A stretch of DNA of 32,000 nucleotides from Vibrio alginolyticus NBRC 15630 = ATCC 17749 (GCF_000354175.2 NC_022349.1:2190001-2222000), one strand, 5' to 3'; positions 1,385-23,293 are shown, numbered from the stretch's first letter. A program made the numbers and translations. The notes: generated by a model not told the origin, from the letters alone.

Positions 1385-1590
1385 CCCTGTCATCATGACA
1401 GTCCAGTGCTGTGGCTCAGTTGTTGGCAGGTATTCGGACTCAAGAGCACGGGTGTACCGCCTACTTGCTCGACTTCCCACATAAACTAATGCAGTGTCTG
1501 ATGAGCGTTCGTTCTCTTTTACCGCTGCGCGTCAGTTCTGGATTCACACCAGATTCCCATTTCAGCCATCTAGATTGCTAGATAGCACCA
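1385..1590 (-). promoter_or_regulatory. Cobalamin (B12) riboswitch in the btuB leader
   Basis: The minus-strand leader reads GGTGCTATC..GCTGAAATGGGAATCTGGTGTGAATCCAGAACTGACGCGCAGCGGTAAAAG, the conserved core. Further 3' is GAGTCCGAATACCTGCCAAC, a B12-box-like element (plus coords 1422..1440). A palindrome CTGTCATGATGACAG follows just before the RBS. The boundaries are approximate. Confidence 0.85.
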
Positions 1591-1791
1591 ACTTGAGGCA
1601 AATATTATTCAGCTATTGATTATTTGTCCAGCCAATATTGCCCTTAGAAGTTGTAACGTTTTGATTGATTTTGCTTTCTACTCTGCCTGTACGCACTATC
1701 TTTAAATCAATTCCAGTACAAAACTGGACATCCTATTGAGATTGAATAAAATCTGCGCTCTTAAATTGAATGCACCATAAAAGGTAAGATC

Positions 1792-2901: not shown

Positions 2902-2937
2902 GGGTTTAAAAGGTTTTTAATTGTAGCAAAAATCGCT

Positions 2938-2960
2938 CTGGGTACGGCTTGGGGTACGGG
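2938..2960 (+). repeat. Island-internal 23-bp repeat, left copy (candidate integrase/RDF arm-type site)
   Basis: CTGGGTACGGCTTGGGGTACGGG matches 23097..23119 (CTGGGTACGGCGTGGGGTACGGG) with 1 mismatch, in the same orientation. Each copy contains GGGTACGG twice, 12 bp apart. Confidence 0.55.
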
Positions 2961-3111: not shown

Positions 3112-4044
3112 CTATTTTTTAGTTTGCTTGGTGTACTCCTGCTCTATGAGATACTCAATAAGTTTGTTTTTCTTCATATCAAGTGCTTTAGACAGGTGGT
3201 CAATTTTCTTTTGCAGAGACTCCTCCATCTCAAAACTGTAGGCCTTCACCTTTTTAAGCTTGTTCTTCTCTCTATGCTTATATTGATTCCATGAAAGATT
3301 CATCTTGTGAATGTACGCACTCTTGCTCATATTTTTCTCATCATAAAGTAGAGAAGCCTTAAAAAAGCTACTGCTACTCCATAGATAAAGGGATATGGCT
3401 AAGGATAAGTTAGCCGTATTGTTTGAAGCAGGTATCTCAAATGGTAGAAAAGCACCATCGCTTTCTAGCTTATTTTTTGTCCATTCAGCTCTATCTTCAT
3501 TCTCTTCTTTTGTTAGCTTGAAGAAAGGAGAACGCTTAAAGTCCAGATATTTGTTTTTTATCTCGTTCATGGCCTCTTGTTGCTTTAATGCATCTTGGAT
3601 ACCAGTTTCTTTAAATAAGTAATGCAAGAATATAGTTGTATGCATTTTCCACTTTGAAGCATGAGGCGAAAACTTTGGTACATATCCAACAACCGCATCA
3701 TTAGCACTTGTTGAAAAAACCACATCAAAATCTGAGATATTCTTCGCTTTAGTATCTTGCTTATTACACCTAACCACTAGAAGCATGCAATACCATATAA
3801 AGTAGGAAGATACGTAGTCACGAGTATCAATCCAGTCATACTCACTGAGCGCAATATTTCTAATTACAAAGTTATCTTTCAGTCTTTGAAGGCAACCTTC
3901 CGAATCTTTCTTCACAGCATCTTTGGCAATCATGATTCGAGCATCAATATCATCCTGATTGCTATCTATCGTGATCTCAAAACTAACATCAAAAAGAAAC
4001 CTAGGGTCATGTTCTACGTTGAATGTCTGTATTAAATTTGCCAT
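3112..4044 (-). CDS. Hypothetical protein, 310 aa, no recognised family; C-terminal ribbon-helix-helix-like segment
   Basis: Long uninterrupted ORF in a visibly AT-rich block. The C-terminus KKVKAYSFEMEESLQKKIDHLSKALDMKKNKLIEYLIEQEY fits a strand-helix-turn-helix (RHH/CopG-like) pattern. The N-terminal ~260 aa are unrecognised. Confidence 0.6.
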   Translation of the reverse strand: MANLIQTFNVEHDPRFLFDVSFEITIDSNQDDIDARIMIAKDAVKKDSEGCLQRLKDNFVIRNIALSEYDWIDTRDYVSSYFIWYCMLLVVRCNKQDTKAKNISDFDVVFSTSANDAVVGYVPKFSPHASKWKMHTTIFLHYLFKETGIQDALKQQEAMNEIKNKYLDFKRSPFFKLTKEENEDRAEWTKNKLESDGAFLPFEIPASNNTANLSLAISLYLWSSSSFFKASLLYDEKNMSKSAYIHKMNLSWNQYKHREKNKLKKVKAYSFEMEESLQKKIDHLSKALDMKKNKLIEYLIEQEYTKQTKK

Positions 4045-5171: not shown

Positions 5172-5618
5172 CTAATCTGTCGTATAGCGGAACTCACCTT
5201 CACTGGAAAAGATTTTTATCTCTAAGACTCTACAGCGCGTTGTGGTGACGTATCCGGTTGAATCCCCGTACTTCAGGTCCACTTCAGGATAACGATGCCA
5301 TACGACCCCATTCGCCTTGCTATCGCTAGATGGCTTTTTGTAGTCGGGATTGCTCAGATTATTGAGTAAGTCATCGGATTGGCTATATTTATTCTTGTTT
5401 ACAGTCATCTTGGGCATCTCTGGCCAAGCAACCTCACAATTGCCTCGGTTTACTTCAATGCCGAAGATGGTAGAGAAGTCAAAAAGAGACGTCACAAAGA
5501 TTTTCGTTTTCGTTCCCCATTGAGTATTGATGTCTTTATATTCCACTTTGTAGCCTTAAGCTGACGCATTAAAGGCTAATAACATTGACAGTGCTGCTGT
5601 AAGCACAATTGGTTTCAT
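5172..5618 (-). pseudogene. Small secreted protein gene interrupted by an in-frame TAA right after its signal peptide
   Basis: The ATG at 5618..5616 is preceded by AAAGGA. It encodes MKPIVLTAALSMLLAFNASA, then TAA (5558..5556). The same frame continues GYKVEYKDINTQWGT.. into the 124-aa ORF (5172..5546), which the track starts at a GTG. Confidence 0.6.
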
Positions 5619-6794: not shown

Positions 6795-7016
6795 ATGAGA
6801 CTAATTCGACTAAAAGAAGTGCTGGATAATACAGGTTTGAGCCGTGCGTATATGTACAAACTCATGGCAGAGGGTAAGTTCCCTAAATCGGTATCACTGG
6901 GCTTTCGCAGCGTGGCTTGGGTAGAAAGCGAAGTACAAGACTGGATATTAGAAAGAGTGGCAGAACGAGATGAGCGATTGGGTTTGCCAATGCTAGAACA
7001 AGAGGCAGTGGCTTAA
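6795..7016 (+). CDS. alpA: AlpA-family phage regulatory protein / putative excisionase (RDF)
   Basis: MRLIRLKEVLDNTGLSRAYMYKLMAEGKFPKSVSLGFRSVAWVESEVQDWI is the typical AlpA/MerR-like HTH signature. The gene is co-resident with a P4-like integrase. Confidence 0.85.
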   Translation: MRLIRLKEVLDNTGLSRAYMYKLMAEGKFPKSVSLGFRSVAWVESEVQDWILERVAERDERLGLPMLEQEAVA

Positions 7017-10282: not shown

Positions 10283-10430
10283 AAAAAGCTCCTAAAAATG
10301 AAACCGTTGAGGTATGCACGAAGATGATATCTATCTGAAATTGTTTTGATTGCTATGGGTCAAATCATGGTACTTTTATCACTAGTATTCTCAAAGTATT
10401 TATTGATGTCGTTAAATAGGTCTGATCTTT

Positions 10431-12983
10431 ATGGGTAAGTTGAGTATTCCAAGTCGTAATGTAAACCAATTTGTGTATGACTTTTCTCGTTATAATTACA
10501 GTAATGACAAGGAGGAGACGACTACAATTGAACGCGTAAAAAGGATTACTCAAAATGATCGTTCTGATGATGGAATAAAAGAAATTCAGTTAGAGCTTCT
10601 TTGGAATGAACTAACCAAAGAAAAGCGCCAAAAGCCCGCAAGACCTACCCAAAGAACTAACAATAACGACAAGCACAAAAATAAAAGTGAGCAGAAAAAG
10701 GAACACAGAGCTCAAAGGAAGAAAGATGCCGATGCCAGAAAGCTGCAAAAAAAGGCCAACAACCTAGATAGATCCACTTCACGCACACCGAAAACATTCC
10801 AGAGAAAGCCTGAGTCGGCTCAAAAGAGCATGAATAGTTGGTCCAATGCACCATCTTGGAGTGAAGTAAAAAAGCGTTCACCGCAGAATCTAGATCCCAC
10901 GGTTAAAACGAGCCCTATCGACAAGCTTCCTAATGGTCCGGAAAATCGATTAAAACAAAGTATTTCTCTATTAAGCGTTACCGACAAACTACTTTCTGAG
11001 CTTCAGGCAGAACTCGCCATCTATCAGTTGCAATGCGTTTGGAACTGGTCAGATGGAAGTCGGAAATTGGTTTTACGACAAACAGGTACCTCTTTGCCTT
11101 ATGAGACGATTCAAGGTAAGGATGACAAAGAAAAATTAGAGATACTAAAACGGGCATATAGGCTTTTCACTTTCAAGAGCAACTATACTGGTGAGCAAGA
11201 ACAAAGGGTCTCTCTGGAGAAACTCGTTAACTTTATGTGGTCTACTCAAATACTGAGATATTCGAGAGACAAGAAGGTATCTCTTCCAAAGAGCATTAAG
11301 AAAAAATCTTTTGCATTCACCTCAACAACTTCGCTGCTGCATAAACAACTAAGCTGGAAAAACCTTTCAGCCTTAGAAAAAGCAAATCTGATAATTATGA
11401 TTCGTTCAAGGATCGGTTTTGCTAAAACAAAAGAACCTCTAGAGGCTGCGTTAGTGCAACCTGACATCTATGAGCAGTTGTTAAAAGAGCGCCCCGAGCT
11501 CGCTCCATCGCTTTTATCTTCAGACAATCAAAGTCAATCAGATAAAACGGCAAAGCCAACGAAAGAAACCAGCTCAAGTACAGCCAACCAACAAACCTCT
11601 AATGTTGGAGATCCCAATAACGCATTGAGTACCGACGATGAGTTACAATCGAAAGCTCCCTATGGTCCTCATGGACAAGCGAAATCGTTAGAGTTACCCA
11701 GTAATACAGTCCTCAAAACCAGTGATTCATCAATAGATAAAACGTCGGTAAAAGCAAACGCCGAAATCAACGCAACAAAAACAGTTCAGAGCACATTTCG
11801 TTGGCCCTCTACAATTGCAAACGAAGCAGATGGTTCGCTGCCTGAAAGTCAGTGGCCTCAAATGGGGATGCTCAAAGCAGTGGGATACACAGTAGGTGTA
11901 TCTGGTTTGGCAGTCTCTTCTCGACTCAAGTTGCTAAAAAACATTTATTGTGAAGAGTTACCATACGTCGACTCAAAGGCATATGTCGCTGAGTGGGGCT
12001 CCCCAGAAACGGCTACACGATTAAAAAAAATGGCAGAAACACTGGCTGCTCTTGCAAGAAATGCAAAGCGCAAGAGTGCAAACATGGAAGTGGCGATTCG
12101 AGATTGGGAGCATGATCTAACTTGGCTTAAAGATCAATACTACTTGAAGCACAAATATAGCTGGGTCTGGCCAACTTCAACAAATCAAGATGAGAAACCT
12201 CACGTCAAAATTATCAAAAAGGAACCTGTTAAGCTCTATCGTTCTTCCCGAGAGTTTTTAACTGAACAGTACACGAATAAAGCGGGTGAGCTTTGCTGTC
12301 AGGTCTGCCAGTCGGCCCTGCCTTTTAAACTAACTAACGGTGAGTATTTTTGGGAAGAAACATCTATTTCAAAACAACTGGACTCATCACCCTTCTCTGA
12401 TTTAGTGCTCTGCCCGAACCATAGGGCGATGTATGAGCACGCGAATGAGAGCGAAGCACAGTTGATCGAACAAATAACAGCAGGGAAAGTAAAAGAGCTC
12501 TCATTGAAGCTGGCAGGGAAATCAGAAAAGCTTTTCATAACCAGTGATCACTTAAAACAATTACTGCCTGCTGTAATAAAACTCCAATCAGAGGTTTCTC
12601 CATATTCTCAGGTTAGCAAAGGGCTAATGAATGTCAGAAATCTGTACCTATATGAAAGTGATGGGTATTGGCACTTAACGTCTAAGAAACGCGCAATTTT
12701 GATATCGCGACCGTCAAAAAATGAAGTAATTGAATGGCTAGAAGGCTTTGATAAATTACGAAACTTCTCTCAACCCTCAAATGTCAAAGAGCAAGAGCCA
12801 CCTGCAAAAAAGATAAAGGTTAAACCTCTAGCTAAGGGGCCTTCAGCGATACGCTTTGGTACAACAAAAAAGGTTACGCAAACCAGTTCCTATAAAACGG
12901 GCTATAAACTTTGTTCCGTCTGCAATGGAGATGGTGGTGTCAATGGAGGCTGTTGGAAATGCGAAGGATCTGGCTGGATGTAA
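10431..12983 (+). CDS. Large orphan protein (850 aa): disordered basic and S/T/Q-rich linkers, CxxC..CPNH zinc ribbon, C-terminal 2x CxxCxGxG zinc finger
   Basis: A single long ORF with no competing frame. C622/C623-C626...C661-P-N-H664 lies at nt 12294..12425. CSVCNGDGGVNGGCWKCEGSG lies at aa 828..848 (nt 12912..12980). No family was recognised. Confidence 0.7.
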   Translation: MGKLSIPSRNVNQFVYDFSRYNYSNDKEETTTIERVKRITQNDRSDDGIKEIQLELLWNELTKEKRQKPARPTQRTNNNDKHKNKSEQKKEHRAQRKKDADARKLQKKANNLDRSTSRTPKTFQRKPESAQKSMNSWSNAPSWSEVKKRSPQNLDPTVKTSPIDKLPNGPENRLKQSISLLSVTDKLLSELQAELAIYQLQCVWNWSDGSRKLVLRQTGTSLPYETIQGKDDKEKLEILKRAYRLFTFKSNYTGEQEQRVSLEKLVNFMWSTQILRYSRDKKVSLPKSIKKKSFAFTSTTSLLHKQLSWKNLSALEKANLIIMIRSRIGFAKTKEPLEAALVQPDIYEQLLKERPELAPSLLSSDNQSQSDKTAKPTKETSSSTANQQTSNVGDPNNALSTDDELQSKAPYGPHGQAKSLELPSNTVLKTSDSSIDKTSVKANAEINATKTVQSTFRWPSTIANEADGSLPESQWPQMGMLKAVGYTVGVSGLAVSSRLKLLKNIYCEELPYVDSKAYVAEWGSPETATRLKKMAETLAALARNAKRKSANMEVAIRDWEHDLTWLKDQYYLKHKYSWVWPTSTNQDEKPHVKIIKKEPVKLYRSSREFLTEQYTNKAGELCCQVCQSALPFKLTNGEYFWEETSISKQLDSSPFSDLVLCPNHRAMYEHANESEAQLIEQITAGKVKELSLKLAGKSEKLFITSDHLKQLLPAVIKLQSEVSPYSQVSKGLMNVRNLYLYESDGYWHLTSKKRAILISRPSKNEVIEWLEGFDKLRNFSQPSNVKEQEPPAKKIKVKPLAKGPSAIRFGTTKKVTQTSSYKTGYKLCSVCNGDGGVNGGCWKCEGSGWM

Positions 12984-13643
12984 AATAGACATCTACCTGC
13001 ATATGGGCAGAACAAGCAAAATTTCTTCGTTGAACAAAAACGATAGAACTCATATTGTTTTTCAGGGGAGGGGGTAGTGGAAGCATTCAACCTTAATGCA
13101 GCTAAACCACAGGACAAACGAGGAAACTTCAAGTTTGAACGGCTTACTACTGATATCGAAAGCGCCTACTACCTACTAGTAGACCTGTAGTGTTATTGCA
13201 CAACTTCCTTTGATTTCTGAGGATTATCAGTACAGTTTTCCTAGTAAACCGACTCTCAACCCCAATTCACCTTTTTTGTAATTGGCAAAAAACAAGATAG
13301 AAAAACTAGCTTAAGCCGAGGTCCAGCAAGTTCTATGGTCCTTCTAAAATCCACAAGGATAAATAAACTATAGCGGTCCAGATTACTGGCAGAACTCGGT
13401 CGGTAAATCACTTAAGGAAATTGAGGCGGAATCCATTTAATGGTATCAGACGCATAAATCATTAGAAACAAGCAAGGGAAGCCAACGCAATATCCTATAG
13501 AGATCATTGTCCCCTTCCCTATTTTCCCCTATCCTCTGCCCACAAAACTCCCTCGCGTGTGATGCACACACAACAAGCAACACCACCACATCACATGAAC
13601 AAAGGGAAAGCATTTTTAAATGAATTTTTCAGGAAAAACTATA

Positions 13644-15203: not shown

Positions 15204-16435
15204 ACAACCTAACCTATTTAGAGAAACTGTTGGATGGTGTTGATGTTGAATGGAAAAAATTAACTGATGTTTTTCAGCTTAAAAATGGGTATACACCATC
15301 AAAATCAAAAAAAGAATTCTGGGAAAATGGAACTGTTCCATGGTTTAGAATGGATGACATCCGAGAAAATGGCCAAGTCCTTGATGGCTCGCTTCAAAAA
15401 GTCTCAGAGAGCGCAATCAAAGGTGGAAAGCTATTTCCTGCAAATTCAATAATAATTGCTACATCAGCAACCATTGGAGAGCACGCTTTGGTTCGTGTTC
15501 CATTTTTAGCAAATCAGAGATTTACCAATTTAAGTTTAAAGCCTGACTATAAAGACACTTTTAATAGCAAGTTTATTTTCTATTACTGCTTTATTTTGGC
15601 AGATTGGTGTAAAAAAAACACAACCATGTCCAGCTTTGCATCTGTTGATATGGATGGATTTAAAAAATTTCTTTTCCCCATCCCATGCCCTGACAACCCA
15701 GAAAAATCGTTAGCAATACAAGCCGAAATTGTGCGTATTCTGGATGCATTCACTGAGCTGACCGCTGAGCTGACCGCTGAGCTTAACCTACGCAAAAAAC
15801 AGTACAACTACTACCGAGATAAGTTGTTGAGTTTTAAATATGATGAGGTTGAGTGGAAGACGTTGGAGGAGGTCGCGCACTTTGCAAATGGAAAAGGGCA
15901 TGAGAAAGATATATCAGAAGATGGCAAATTTATTGTTGTAAATTCGAAGTTCATCTCCACAGATGGTTTAGTTGCTAAGTACTCACATAGCCAAATATGC
16001 CCTCTCTTTAAAGACGATATTCTACTCGTAATGAGTGATCTACCCAATGGCAAAGCTCTCTCAAAAACATTTCTTGTAGATGAAGACGAAAAGTACACGT
16101 TAAATCAGCGTATAGGACGGATCACCGTTAAAGATAAGTCTGAAATGTTGCCTAAATTTTTACACTATTTTTTAGATAGAACACCGCAGTTGTTAAAACA
16201 CAATAATGGCGTTGATCAAACAAATTTACGTAAAGGGCAGATCCTTGAAGTTAAGGTACCAATTATTTCACTCCAAAAACAGACGCATATAGTTAATATC
16301 TTAGATAAATTTGATAAGCTCACAAAATCGCTTTCGGAAGGTCTCCCACGCGAAATCGAGTTACGCCAAAAGCAATACGAGTATTATCGCGACTTGTTGT
16401 TGAGCTTCCCTAAATCGAATGAGGGGGCGGCGTAG
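15200..16435 (+). CDS. hsdS: Type IC specificity subunit HsdS with two TAEL repeats in the central conserved region
   Basis: ATGA overlap with hsdM. The conserved type IC regions are present: [65 protein letters not shown] and [24 protein letters not shown]. Two variable TRDs lie between them. Confidence 0.92.
15752..15784 (+). repeat. 12-bp tandem repeat ACCGCTGAGCTG/T x2 (plus a partial copy ACTGAGCTG) encoding [11 protein letters not shown] in hsdS
   Basis: Read directly: actgagctg accgctgagctg accgctgagctt. Confidence 0.9.
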
Positions 16436-16436
16436 T

Positions 16437-17570
16437 ATGAGTAAGGAACTAAACGAGATAGCCAACGACCTAAAGAAGGCGAATAAAAAAGTACAACTGA
16501 TTTATGCTTTTAACGGCACAGGTAAAACGCGTTTATCGCGCGCATTTAAAGAATTAGTCGCACCCAAAGATGACGCACAAGAAGAAGGAGATGGCGAAGC
16601 AGGCCAACAAGCACCACTGTCACGCCACAAAATTCTCTATTACAACGCATTTACTGAAGACCTCTTCTATTGGGATAACGATCTGGAAGGAGATGCTGAG
16701 CCTAAACTAAGGATTCAACCAAATACCTTTACCGATTGGATTCTCAAAGTTCAGGGACAAGAAGCTAACATTACTAAAATTTTCCAGCGTTATAGTAATG
16801 ACAAGCTCACACCTAATTTCAGCCAAGACTTTAGTCACGTTACATTCTCATTTGAACGAGGCAACGCAGAAAAAGAACCAAATGTAAAAATTTCCAAAGG
16901 TGAGGAAAGCAATTTTGTTTGGAGCATTTTTCACGGTCTTTTGGAGCAGGTGATCCGGGTACTCAATAACCCTGAGGAAGAAGATGGTGACGAGTTCCAA
17001 CAACTAGAGTACGTCTTTATTGATGATCCCGTCAGCTCTTTAGACGAAAATCATTTGATTGAGTTGGCCGTCAATCTAGCAGAGCTGATCAGAACAAGTC
17101 CGGACAAGCTTAAGTTTGTTATATCAACCCATAACCCTCTTTTTTACAATGTCTTGCACAATGAACTAAATAAGAAAACGTGTTATCTATTACAAAAATT
17201 TGAAGACGGCAGTTTTGAACTAAAAGAGAAGCAGGGGGGCGCAAATACCAGCTTTTCGTATCATTTGTATATCAAGCAATTGATTGAAAAGGCAATATCT
17301 GACAACGAAGTACAACGATTCCACTTCAACTTATTACGAAACCTGTATGAAAAGGTCGCGGCATTTTTGGGCTACTCGGATTGGACAGCGCTCCTCCCTG
17401 AGAATCGCGAACTGTATGCTAAACGAGTGATGCATTTTTACAGTCATCGCTCCTTGTCAAATGAAGAAGTTGCAGAACCCACAGAACCAGAAAAGCAGAC
17501 AGTAAAATTTCTGCTTGAACATTTATTAAATAACTACGGTTTTAAACTGCAAGGAGAAGCGAATGCCTAA
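16437..17570 (+). CDS. prrC: PrrC-like anticodon nuclease (ABC/AAA_13-type NTPase N-domain plus C-terminal nuclease domain)
   Basis: Walker A YAFNGTGKTRLS and Walker B YVFIDDPVSSLD are present. The C-terminal LLRNLYEK...FYSHRS gives R301-x3-E305 and H337, the same spacing I recall for the EcoPrrC catalytic R320/E324/H356. The gene sits between hsdS and hsdR of a type IC system, as in the E. coli prr locus. The start ATG at 16437 is 1 nt after the hsdS stop, with a GAGGGGG RBS. Confidence 0.75.
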   Translation: MSKELNEIANDLKKANKKVQLIYAFNGTGKTRLSRAFKELVAPKDDAQEEGDGEAGQQAPLSRHKILYYNAFTEDLFYWDNDLEGDAEPKLRIQPNTFTDWILKVQGQEANITKIFQRYSNDKLTPNFSQDFSHVTFSFERGNAEKEPNVKISKGEESNFVWSIFHGLLEQVIRVLNNPEEEDGDEFQQLEYVFIDDPVSSLDENHLIELAVNLAELIRTSPDKLKFVISTHNPLFYNVLHNELNKKTCYLLQKFEDGSFELKEKQGGANTSFSYHLYIKQLIEKAISDNEVQRFHFNLLRNLYEKVAAFLGYSDWTALLPENRELYAKRVMHFYSHRSLSNEEVAEPTEPEKQTVKFLLEHLLNNYGFKLQGEANA

Positions 17571-21806: not shown

Positions 21807-23075
21807 CTATGCCGATTTCGACGCAGACAGAGGCACTACATTGGCAACCGTCAGAGATTGTAACTTCTCGCCCCAGGCTTGTAATACCACTAACTGTTCT
21901 TCAAGGTAATCGTGATGATTGTATACCCGCAACATACCTGGTAGCTGGTGGCCAACCGTCTTTTCAATCGCCACAATATCTAACCCCATTTCACTGCAAC
22001 GACTGATAAAGGTGCGGCGCAGATCGTGTGGTGAGAAACGCTCAAAATCATCCGGTAAGTTACGTTTAATTAGCGCACGTACTGCTGCGGGTTCCTGAAC
22101 CTTATCGGCCAAAAGCTGAGGCCAAACAAGTTTCCATTTGCTTGGTAGGCTCTCACGCTGCTCTTTAAGAAGCGCCAACAGGTAATCGCTTAATGGTACT
22201 TTCCGACTCTCCTGACTTTTGGTGTGGCGCTCCTCAGAGCTGGCAGGTAACAACCATACCTTTTCTTGCCAATCTATCTCACTCCAGTGCATTTCAAGCA
22301 CGGCACTAATACGTTGCCCACACCCAAGCAAAAACTGCATTAAACGGACGTTAGAAGGCTCTGTACGCCAAGAAGGCAAACTGGTTAGCAAAGTCTTCAA
22401 CTCTGAAAAGCTCAAATTGCGCTTGGTGACTTTAGAACCACCACCGACATCCTTGGATTTCAAATGTGGTGCAGGGTGTGCACCAATCATATTCAAAGCT
22501 AGCGCATGGTTGATCACCTGATTGATAATTCTATGGCATGCACTAATCGCACCCGCTTTTCGCTGTCCATTCTCATCAACCTTTGCATCAAATACTTTAT
22601 TAAGATCATGAATTCTCAACTCTTCTAGTTTGATGTGACCAAGAAATGGTTTGATATCCCGGCTATAGGTTGCCCTCGCTTGTTCTCCTCGTAGCTGCTT
22701 GGACAAACGCTTCTCGTCAAAACTGGCAAAAGCATCATCAAAAGTTTTTGCTTCCTCTTGCTCGCGCTGTTCACGTGCCAGTTCCTGCTTCGGATTTTTA
22801 TTGTTTTCCAGCCAGCTACGGTAACGCCCCGCTTCTGTTCGAGCCTGTTCAAGTGTCATCCCCGTTTCCGGTTTCAACTTAACATACCGCCCCATGGTGA
22901 TTTTTTCGTGTTTGTTACCAGCCTGAAAGCGAAAGATCCAAGTCATCGTGCCCGTTGGTCGAACGCGAATATTCAATCCTTCGATTTTCTTATCTGGAAT
23001 TAAGTATTCCTTGCCTTGTGGCTTCAATGCTTTCAATGTGGCATTCGTACTAATTTTATCGACTGGCTTGATCAT
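21807..23075 (-). CDS. int: P4/CP4-57-type tyrosine integrase (DUF4102 arm-binding N-domain)
   Basis: N-terminus LKPQGKEYLIPDKKIEGLNIRVRPTGTMTWIFRFQ. C-terminal catalytic region SPHDLRRTF..VGHQLPGMLRVYNHHDY. It lies adjacent to attR. Confidence 0.92.
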   Translation of the reverse strand: MIKPVDKISTNATLKALKPQGKEYLIPDKKIEGLNIRVRPTGTMTWIFRFQAGNKHEKITMGRYVKLKPETGMTLEQARTEAGRYRSWLENNKNPKQELAREQREQEEAKTFDDAFASFDEKRLSKQLRGEQARATYSRDIKPFLGHIKLEELRIHDLNKVFDAKVDENGQRKAGAISACHRIINQVINHALALNMIGAHPAPHLKSKDVGGGSKVTKRNLSFSELKTLLTSLPSWRTEPSNVRLMQFLLGCGQRISAVLEMHWSEIDWQEKVWLLPASSEERHTKSQESRKVPLSDYLLALLKEQRESLPSKWKLVWPQLLADKVQEPAAVRALIKRNLPDDFERFSPHDLRRTFISRCSEMGLDIVAIEKTVGHQLPGMLRVYNHHDYLEEQLVVLQAWGEKLQSLTVANVVPLSASKSA

Positions 23076-23096
23076 GACTGAAAAACCTCTGTATTT

Positions 23097-23120
23097 CTGG
23101 GTACGGCGTGGGGTACGGGG
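23097..23120 (+). repeat. Island-internal 23-bp repeat, right copy (candidate arm-type site), just upstream of int
   Basis: CTGGGTACGGCGTGGGGTACGGGG. A further GTACGGC half-site lies at about 23139..23145. Confidence 0.55.
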
Positions 23121-23248
23121 AAAGACGAGTTTTCATTGTACGGCTAAAGACGTCCTTGGACAATTAACAATTAAAATTCAATTAAAAACAACACATTAAA
23201 ATGCAAAGTTGGATTTTATAAGACATTACAAGATTCAGAGTTTGATTT

Positions 23249-23265
23249 ACCCACCACATGGAAGC
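23249..23265 (+). repeat. attR core (17-bp direct repeat)
   Basis: ACCCACCACATGGAAGC, identical to 2857..2873. Confidence 0.8.
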
Positions 23266-23293
23266 TGGCGTGCTATTGGAACGTAAAGCTTAG
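23249..23293 (+). pseudogene. trmA: Displaced original 3' end of trmA (14 codons plus stop)
   Basis: It translates [14 protein letters not shown], against the resident trmA end [14 protein letters not shown]. Downstream of the 17-bp core the DNA shows only synonymous-type similarity. Confidence 0.8.

Follow-up and report, generated by a model that had tools for sequence, protein, structure and literature searches.

A mobile single-gene cassette shared by an integrase island and Vibrio type I-F3 CRISPR-associated transposons is a candidate phage and mobile-element conflict gene

Escherichia coli McrA is a type IV restriction enzyme that depends on 5-methylcytosine and possesses a nuclease of the HNH type. 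Among CRISPR-associated transposons (CASTs), native regulation is known to be complex (PMC12150760). Both systems bear on the gene described here, an 850-amino-acid (aa) open reading frame (ORF) with an ATG start at 10431..12983 (+; stop codon included) in a 32,000-nucleotide (nt) stretch of Vibrio alginolyticus NBRC 15630 = ATCC 17749 (NC_022349.1:2190001-2222000; hereafter the window). We find that this gene is an autonomous, horizontally mobile single-gene cassette located at the edge of variable defence cargo, and that two unrelated families of mobile elements carry it: an integrase island, represented in the window, and the type I-F3 CASTs of Vibrio. In both families the gene stays put while the neighbouring defence cargo turns over. 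The only solid homologies of its product are local, to the HNH finger of McrA and to the C-terminal domain of proteins resembling TmtA, and by sequence we read it as a cargo protein of defence islands and mobile genetic elements (MGEs) that is built on an HNH-derived scaffold. We regard the gene as a good but unproven candidate for a role in conflicts with phages or mobile elements.

The gene is genuine, intact and under purifying selection, as judged from its intact copies and from low ratios of nonsynonymous to synonymous substitution (dN/dS). Five copies were compared (those of the window, V. furnissii, a Proteus plasmid, V. gelatinilyticus and V. thalassae): stop codons were absent from 5/5, the whole-gene dN/dS was 0.28-0.40 against copies that are 96-97% identical and 0.06 against a 70% identical copy, and the ratio within the aa 454-585 block was 0.03-0.09. 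The gene belongs to a cluster of 87 members sharing at least 90% identity, all 846-850 aa in length and drawn from V. parahaemolyticus, V. alginolyticus and V. vulnificus. As the initial annotation stated, it is surpassed within the island only by hsdR (850 vs 1040 aa), which is also the one larger ORF of the window; it encodes a multi-domain protein with an isoelectric point (pI) of 9.5. Its description as an orphan likewise holds, in that the whole protein gave zero matches in Pfam, in NCBIfam and in PADLOC (PADLOC-DB v2), even at a cut-off of E<=10, zero matches among PDB sequences, and only two marginal, local matches in PHROGs (phrog_15103, E=0.0011 over 75 residues, and phrog_127, E=0.05). 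A word-indexed search returned 15 relatives, all from Vibrio save two metagenomic proteins with one common block. Literature searches covering DUF2787 together with RadC, the cargo and hotspots of CASTs, and Tiamat/TmtA turned up no description of the gene, of its helical module or of a conserved gene upstream of tniQ. Scans for promoters and terminators gave signals no commoner than in shuffled sequences.

The window copy resides in a ~20-kb tyrosine-integrase island of the P4 type, spanning about 2937-23119 between trmA and yijD/fabR/sthA, with no tRNA. One side of the gene is occupied by RadC and two DUF2787 paralogues and the other by hsdM, hsdS, an AAA_13 (PrrC-like) protein, RhuM, hsdR and the integrase, which agrees with the RadC gene, paralogue pair and restriction-modification (R-M) genes reported there at the outset. 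The island is found in the window strain, V. furnissii, V. parahaemolyticus, V. alginolyticus, V. vulnificus and conjugative plasmids of Proteus, and one backbone carries three cargos. Where the window has hsdMS-AAA_13-rhuM-hsdR, the V. furnissii island (locus L013), with the same RadC/DUF2787 backbone and a copy of the gene at 97% identity, has a TerB/WYL cluster and ABC-3C (MC3 with a DUF3732 ATPase; L013 12859-21398) and no hsd, prrC or rhuM. Three ~165-kb conjugative (MOBH) plasmids of Proteus mirabilis carry the island backbone and the gene at 96% identity; the cargo that follows, which on pSNYG35 lies at L021 16724-23747, consists of a methyltransferase, a DEAD helicase, a GIY-YIG protein and a restriction endonuclease, again with no hsd, prrC or rhuM. 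These comparisons point clearly to swapping of defence cargo and to movement of the island from Vibrio to a Proteus conjugative plasmid. In the island the gene always lies beside RadC and is divergent from it.

Among the CAST-borne copies, those closest to the window copy are in V. gelatinilyticus (70% identity overall, 80% in the core) and V. thalassae (67% and 77%). DNA similarity to the nearest of these covers only 10384-12988. It begins, in a blastn comparison with the V. gelatinilyticus copy, at the first position of a leader of ~47 nt 5' of the ATG (10384..10430, +), which is conserved and travels with the gene, and it ends 5 nt past the stop codon. When the island and CAST copies are aligned upstream of the gene only the last ~50 nt are conserved, and a search of the window for a remnant of tniQ or of the 75-aa ORF that accompanies the gene in CASTs found none. 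This confinement of the similarity identifies the gene as a single-gene cassette, as had been suggested when it was singled out as a possible self-contained unit.

The strongest association of the gene is with type I-F3 CASTs. In these loci (L001-L009 and L014-L018) the homologue of the window gene is followed, all on one strand, by the 75-aa ORF and by tniQ-cas8/5-cas7-cas6, with 0-20 nt between its stop codon and the 75-aa ORF and then ~85 nt to tniQ; position and strand beside tniQ-cas are the same in 11/11 CAST loci that have the gene. The hosts are V. hyugaensis, V. gelatinilyticus, V. crassostreae, V. breoganii (two lineages), V. thalassae, V. maritimus, Vibrionales SWAT-3, V. ouci and one read-archive assembly (Sequence Read Archive run). 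The presence of tnsA-tnsB-tnsC upstream in L005, together with two-repeat type I-F arrays after cas6 in L005 and L008, identifies the loci as type I-F3 CASTs. The cargo 5' of the homologue varies: some loci have type I R-M together with pairs of the McrBC-like or GmrSD kind, others a PLD protein or nothing but Xre-VspR-p187, and the CAST L005/L006 has the gene and no R-M. The core of the protein has diverged partly in step with TniQ, Cas8 and Cas7 (rho ~0.5). Its evolution is faster than theirs (mean identity 61% vs 77-84%). The initial annotation had placed the gene in mobile, defence-rich DNA, and the integrase island and the CASTs bear this out; the neighbourhoods of homologues, which it proposed to inspect, show the same mobile and defence contexts recurring across islands, plasmids and CASTs. 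Directly after tnsC we also observed an Xre-type helix-turn-helix (HTH) gene (minus strand) and a gene for a VspR-family regulator (L005 8046-8991; L008 315-1265), a pair that flanks the variable CAST cargo on the side opposite the gene under study.

A sister CAST from a metagenome (L029) provides a useful comparison. Its TniQ, Cas8, Cas7 and Cas6 show 76-86% identity, but the gene and the 75-aa ORF are both absent, and similarity of the backbone DNA restarts ~90 nt upstream of tniQ, directly past the position of the 75-aa ORF stop. The two genes are therefore long-resident cargo at the junction of cargo and backbone, not part of the CAST core; a core gene would be present in all members of the lineage and nowhere else, and this gene is missing from L029 and present in islands and plasmids. 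In CASTs, the invariable occupant of the space separating the homologue from tniQ is the Cys-rich ORF of 75-77 aa (…ECLxxGCG…RKCPxCQGGxPG…; L001 12518-12745; L005 12782-13009; L008 12431-12661; L004 5774-6007; also L003, L007 and L015-L018). It is degenerate in V. gelatinilyticus and absent from the island copies; no family match was found for it, and PADLOC was also empty for it, for p187 and for the proteins P0094 and P0031. A perfect palindrome, AAAACTTAGA-N4-TCTAAGTTTT, is situated ~15 nt 5' of the tniQ start and is kept in all examined CASTs, L029 included (L005 ~13060-13085; L001 ~12800-12825; L029 ~6965-6990); we consider it a candidate operator for tniQ-cas regulation. In four CAST-type loci there is, directly upstream of the homologue, a further ORF of 179-187 aa (L003 9351-9890; L005 9326-9889; L017 9351-9887; L019 9168-9710), which has no Pfam or PADLOC match and persists beside the remnant of the gene in V. 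europaeus.

The protein has a conserved C-terminal half (aa ~454-850) and a fast-evolving N-terminal half that is replaced outright in several members. (Conservation of a segment is given as mean identity across the family alignment, and the invariance of cysteines was judged in 15 family members.) A small conserved segment at the N-terminus (aa 1-60; 10431..10610, +; PSRNxxQFVYDFSRY...DDGIKEIQLELLW; 39% identity) is swapped for other sequence in P0008, P0010, P0011 and P0018. It is followed by a strongly basic low-complexity linker (aa 61-168; 10611..10934, +; 30 K+R, net +19, pI 10.8, 19% identity), by a basic, family-specific middle region (aa 169-352; 10935..11486, +; 21% identity) for which the exhaustive search detected no relatives outside the family, and by an S/T/Q/N-rich linker (aa 353-453; 11487..11789, +; 43% STQN, 6% identity). 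The two linkers are the least conserved parts of the protein. Their composition, K/R-rich in one and S/T/Q/N-rich in the other, is as first described, and composition and non-conservation together lead us to infer that both are disordered. The C-terminal half comprises an unannotated helical domain of ~130 aa (aa 454-585; 11790..12185, +; FxWPST..GYxVG..WGxPxS..RLKKMAE..RNAKRK..AIRDWExDLxWLK..YY..WP), a predicted degenerate McrA-type HNH (beta-beta-alpha-Me) zinc finger (aa 601-690; 12231..12500, +; matched by profile to PDB entry 6GHC), a small alpha/beta domain (aa 691-790; 12501..12800, +), a lysine-rich linker (aa 791-826; 12801..12908, +; net +10) and, at the C-terminus, a zinc knuckle with two CxxCxGxG motifs and the final residues GSGWM (aa 827-850; 12909..12980, +), which is the most conserved segment of all (80% identity) and the site of the weak phrog_127 match. 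Residues ~724-784 of the alpha/beta domain were modelled with predicted local distance difference test (pLDDT) scores of 70-87, and a Foldseek search of the PDB with the model of the core (pLDDT 57) gave nothing below E=0.19 and no neighbour for this domain. The alpha/beta domain is also found in P0094, a 400-aa protein, which shows that the HNH finger, this domain and the CxxCxGxG tail can occur together as a unit apart from the helical module. All 15 members have C622/C623/C626 and C661/H664 (nt 12294-12422), together with C828/C831/C841/C844 of the tail, without variation. Three zinc-binding motifs had been proposed, and their cysteines are thus indeed conserved, but the motifs probably form two zinc sites, one an HNH-type CCCH site and the other built from the paired CxxCxGxG motifs.

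What had been called a zinc ribbon is better described, from its sequence relationships, as a degenerate McrA-type HNH finger that lacks both catalytic histidines. A profile of the block, built from the family, P0094 and the TmtA-like proteins, matched the HNH of E. coli McrA in the PDB (6GHC, residues 200-278) at E=2e-7, and hhalign of the block against a canonical HNH protein gave E=1e-4 with a probability of 57%; no Pfam HNH model detects aa 601-690. The predicted zinc ligands are C623/C626 and C661/H664, with His at the fourth position (CPNH vs CPNC). The EVHHVIP of McrA aligns to WEETSIS, such that E642 matches the Glu of EVHH, and the positions aligned to the McrA His-His are variable (T/I and S/P/R) in the family and its TmtA-like relatives. 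E642 and E643 are invariant in the Vibrio family, E642 is so across the wider clade, and conservation extends to D/N656, H670 and N672. Read most simply, the finger would be structural and DNA-contacting and would no longer cut.

The relatives of this region lie in another group of defence proteins. Residues 604-732 matched, in tblastn searches (E=2e-10 to 8e-7), the extreme C-terminus (~120 residues) of ~1,040-aa plasmid proteins of Rhizobium and Ensifer, which are TmtA-like (Tiamat; Pfam SACS); an Ensifer relative matches PADLOC TmtA at E=6.5e-51 over its N-terminal 550 residues only, and the PADLOC TmtA models do not match the protein under study (0 families at E<=10). The same TmtA-like arrangement, with a His-less HNH, occurs in a metagenome-assembled genome of the Blastocatellia. 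We observed that on the Rhizobium/Ensifer plasmids a conserved operon (L024 532-10788; L022 536-9515) comprises a small ORF, a DrmD-like SNF2 helicase gene and the gene for the TmtA-like (SACS) protein, after which comes a RecB/MkoA-like helicase-nuclease or an EF-G-like protein. These operons look like composite DISARM/Tiamat-like defence loci.

An exhaustive search returned 2,100 representative clusters at E<=1e-3 (1,062 at E<=1e-10), nearly all of them matching aa ~450-585 only, from Proteobacteria, Cyanobacteria and Acidobacteria; the helical domain is C-terminal in 143/173 retrieved proteins, whose median length is 266 aa. The initial annotation had quoted a block at aa 474-571, which is present as given inside the conserved unit aa 454-585, and had described it as a C-terminal module recurring in phage and defence-island proteins. 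The wide recurrence and the C-terminal placement stand, but the phage part does not: no tblastn match was found in 50,697 phage genomes and no relative in IMG/VR viral contigs (narrower module alignment). Pfam, NCBIfam, PADLOC and the PDB hold no counterpart, and the module profile gave only chance-level matches to PDB sequences. A model computed from an 83-sequence alignment is compact and helical (pLDDT 87, predicted template modelling score 0.73), and its best Foldseek matches (E=1.9 in the PDB, 0.22 in BFVD) are not significant; taken with the search using the core model, the structural comparison proposed at the outset produced no match to a known family. By these searches the module appears to be an undescribed domain family, absent from curated databases. 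A HEPN, EAD or other known helical-domain identity was considered and set aside, as no motif or search backs it.

The domains fused to the N-terminal side of the module vary widely, and most lack annotation; those that could be named are GcrA N-terminal DNA-binding domains (two), WYL, dsRBD, IF2_N, a DUF2779/Cas4-like nuclease, CpXC and zinc-ribbon domains, TPR/HEAT repeats and an M16 peptidase. In two proteins, P0077 and P0151, the GcrA N-terminal region (Pfam positions 1-101 and 2-67 of 155) is joined through a basic linker to a C-terminal helical module, which we take to occupy the place of the sigma-70-binding C-terminal domain of GcrA. These GcrA-type fusions hint that the module may be a protein-interaction domain. 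Genes encoding the module alone occur in settings of conflict or mobility, where their neighbours include integrases and an excisionase, SbcCD-like together with SRA-HNH genes, a DUF4011 helicase and a pair made up of SLATT and a nucleotidyltransferase; no conserved partner gene was found for them, and no Rosetta-stone link to the other parts of the protein.

We favour, tentatively and at somewhat less than an even chance, the reading that this is an autonomous mobile cargo gene acting in phage or MGE conflict through DNA binding, not cleavage. The neighbours of the gene include type I R-M, GmrSD, McrBC-like, ABC-3C and DISARM-like genes, and nucleic acids recur as a theme, both in the DNA- and RNA-related domains fused to the module and in the net charges of +19 and +10 of the linkers. 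The protein would serve as a DNA-anchored sensor or scaffold and not as a nuclease: the C-terminal HNH finger, alpha/beta domain and zinc knuckle, together with the K/R-rich linkers, would hold it on uncut DNA; the helical domain at aa 454-585 would be the conserved working end, engaging a conserved nucleic-acid or host-machinery partner; and the fast-evolving, swappable N-terminal half would supply specificity. That the protein binds DNA, has no catalytic activity and takes part in conflict is in each case suggested by sequence features and setting. A more specific form of this reading, which we consider possible if on the unlikely side, is that the gene founds an undescribed effector-less conflict system, working alone in islands and with the 75-aa partner in CASTs, in which a DNA-anchored protein uses its helical domain to capture or block a conserved machine of host or invader (such as RNA polymerase or the replisome) and perhaps also tunes RNA-guided transposition. 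This form draws on the hint that the module replaces the sigma-70-binding domain in two GcrA-type proteins.

Several points weigh against a conflict role of this kind. The role itself is suggested by context, and residence in defence islands is also compatible with counter-defence, regulation or hitch-hiking. Searches of curated libraries found no recognised effector or catalytic domain, with nothing in PADLOC and nothing significant in PHROGs; an effector-less architecture is unusual for a single-gene defence system, and a cryptic enzyme fold may lie within the N-terminal half. DNA binding is suggested by the homology of the HNH scaffold and by charge, and with a pI of 5.1 the HNH-like block is itself on the acidic side. 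The gene does decay, if rarely, with a frameshifted copy in V. maritimus (L016) and a remnant in V. europaeus (L019); the frequent frameshifts in relatives that the initial annotation had allowed for were not seen. The family proper does not extend beyond Vibrio and comprises just ~21 clusters at E<=1e-30, so that the context statistics come from a single lineage of CASTs and a single lineage of islands.

Four other explanations can be set against this evidence. In the window the gene lies on the same strand as hsdM and 636 nt upstream of it, and several CAST copies also follow hsdM-hsdS clusters, so that the gene might assist or regulate the type IC R-M/PrrC/RhuM operon beside it, as was suggested originally. 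We judge this highly improbable: the V. furnissii and Proteus islands (L013 and L021) keep the gene at 96-97% identity with other cargo in place of hsd, prrC and rhuM, which refutes a dedicated tie to that operon; the CAST L005/L006 has the gene and no R-M; its orientation to neighbouring cargo is inconsistent; and shared DNA stops 5 nt after the stop codon. A role in the transposon is better placed but still quite unlikely. Here the gene and the 75-aa ORF would modulate tniQ-cas expression, transposition efficiency or target choice, with island copies as secondary captures. Such a role would account for the fixed strand, position and tight spacing beside tniQ in 11/11 gene-bearing CASTs, for the partial co-divergence with TniQ, Cas8 and Cas7 and for the conserved palindrome just upstream of tniQ, and it would suit the complexity of native CAST regulation. 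It is at odds with L029, where equally similar TniQ, Cas8, Cas7 and Cas6 occur without either gene and backbone similarity starts only past the 75-aa ORF, and with the near-identical copies in islands and Proteus plasmids that lack CAST genes and the 75-aa ORF. V. cholerae is absent among the 15 word-search relatives, so VchCAST probably has no homologue, and the paper on the VpaCAST of V. parahaemolyticus mentions no such gene (PMC12150760).

The same retention of the gene while defence cargo is swapped could instead mark it as part of the backbone, and hence as a counter-defence or establishment factor that occupies DNA or a host factor, shields the incoming element and belongs with the RadC/DUF2787/YfjJ-type backbone genes. 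Its constant adjacency and divergence to RadC in the island, the absence of an effector domain, and the plausibility of a dead nuclease fold as a competitive DNA binder all fit such a role, as does a solo-module gene on a Pseudomonas conjugative megaplasmid, which is found among small unknown genes near ParB in a setting resembling a plasmid leading region. We nevertheless consider it unlikely, since CASTs, which move by cut-and-paste and have no leading region, still keep the gene, the module was not found in phage genomes or viral contigs, where anti-defence genes abound, and the dead-HNH part is common to Tiamat-like defence ATPases. To our knowledge, DNA-mimic anti-restriction proteins do not resemble this large basic protein. 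The remaining alternative takes the finger to be active after all, with E642/E643 replacing the His general base, and the protein to be a self-contained, restriction-like defence enzyme. The invariance of E642/E643, the conservation of the zinc-binding residues, D/N656, H670 and N672, the homology of fold to McrA, a type IV restriction nuclease, and the defence-island setting could all be read in this way. A non-canonical nuclease seems to us very unlikely, given that E642 aligns with the Glu preceding the McrA His-His and not with a catalytic His, that the His-His-aligned positions vary, that Pfam HNH models are silent on the region, and that the same His loss in all TmtA-like relatives suggests a long-standing non-catalytic role.

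Some further features of the island and its surroundings are recorded here. Two 24-nt direct repeats, identical at 23/24 positions, bound the island on the left (2937..2960, immediately past trmA) and on the right (23096..23119, beside the integrase gene at 21807-23075), and are probably attL and attR. In a second 24-nt pair (2856-2879 and 23248-23271), the right-hand member duplicates, beyond the island, a portion of the trmA 3' end. Identity with VPaI-1 was rejected, since VPaI-1 is located at tRNA-Met and the present island lies between trmA and yijD without a tRNA. The "PrrC" gene (16419-17570, +) matches only the C-terminal third of the AAA_13 model (479-685 of 713) at E=4e-16. The 636-nt gap between the gene and hsdM (12984-13619) contains no ORF family, RNA family or similarity to CAST loci, and presumably holds the hsd promoter region. 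Two island ORFs without a Pfam match, 3112-4044 (-, 310 aa) and 5172-5546 (-, 124 aa), are kept in the V. furnissii island at 93% and 67% identity. An Rfam scan of the window gave a single match, unrelated to the gene: a cobalamin riboswitch (RF00174, 99.7 bits) at 1408-1605 (-), just upstream of trmA on the opposite strand and outside the island; it presumably forms the leader of a gene to its left that is regulated by B12.

Should the gene prove to work in conflict, it would represent a mechanism of defence or counter-defence without a canonical effector, and would offer a first functional handle on the helical domain of thousands of uncharacterised bacterial proteins. Its fixed place by tniQ-cas makes the gene and its 75-aa partner obvious candidates for effects on native CAST regulation and efficiency, a matter of relevance to genome engineering. 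In addition, the gene clearly marks the exchange of cargo among integrase islands, conjugative plasmids (from Vibrio to Proteus) and transposons. If inert, it would be one more conserved hypothetical in a defence island, where many similar orphans are found.

Compared with described systems, the likeness is in each case partial. The double CxxCxGxG noted in the tail, two motifs 13 residues apart, recalls the cysteine-rich region (CR) of DnaJ, but the latter has four such repeats, a J domain and a chaperone architecture, and the Pfam DnaJ_CXXCXGXG model does not match the protein even at E<=10; the similarity is one of motif only. The CP4/P4-type island backbone genes (RadC/YeeS, YfjJ/YagK, a YeeP-like GTPase and AlpA) are co-resident with the gene in three island variants, but they have no homology to it, and it is also found in CASTs without such a backbone. 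With CAST accessory genes it shares a fixed position beside tniQ-cas in one CAST lineage and, like VpxR, the Xre-type regulator of V. parahaemolyticus VpaCAST, it is transposon-borne and non-core (PMC12150760). Unlike such regulators, its product has no HTH or known regulator fold and is 8-10 times larger, and the gene is missing from L029 and present outside CASTs. TmtA-like proteins have in common with it a C-terminal His-less HNH finger and defence contexts, and differ in their sacsin/GHKL-type ATPase and in having no aa 454-585 module, alpha/beta domain or zinc-knuckle tail. McrA matches it in the order of a CxxC, a beta-hairpin with a conserved Glu, a (D/N)-x-LCPN-(C/H) motif and a helix with His/Asn, and is set apart from it by its catalytic histidines, by Cys as the fourth ligand and by an N-terminal domain that reads 5-methylcytosine.

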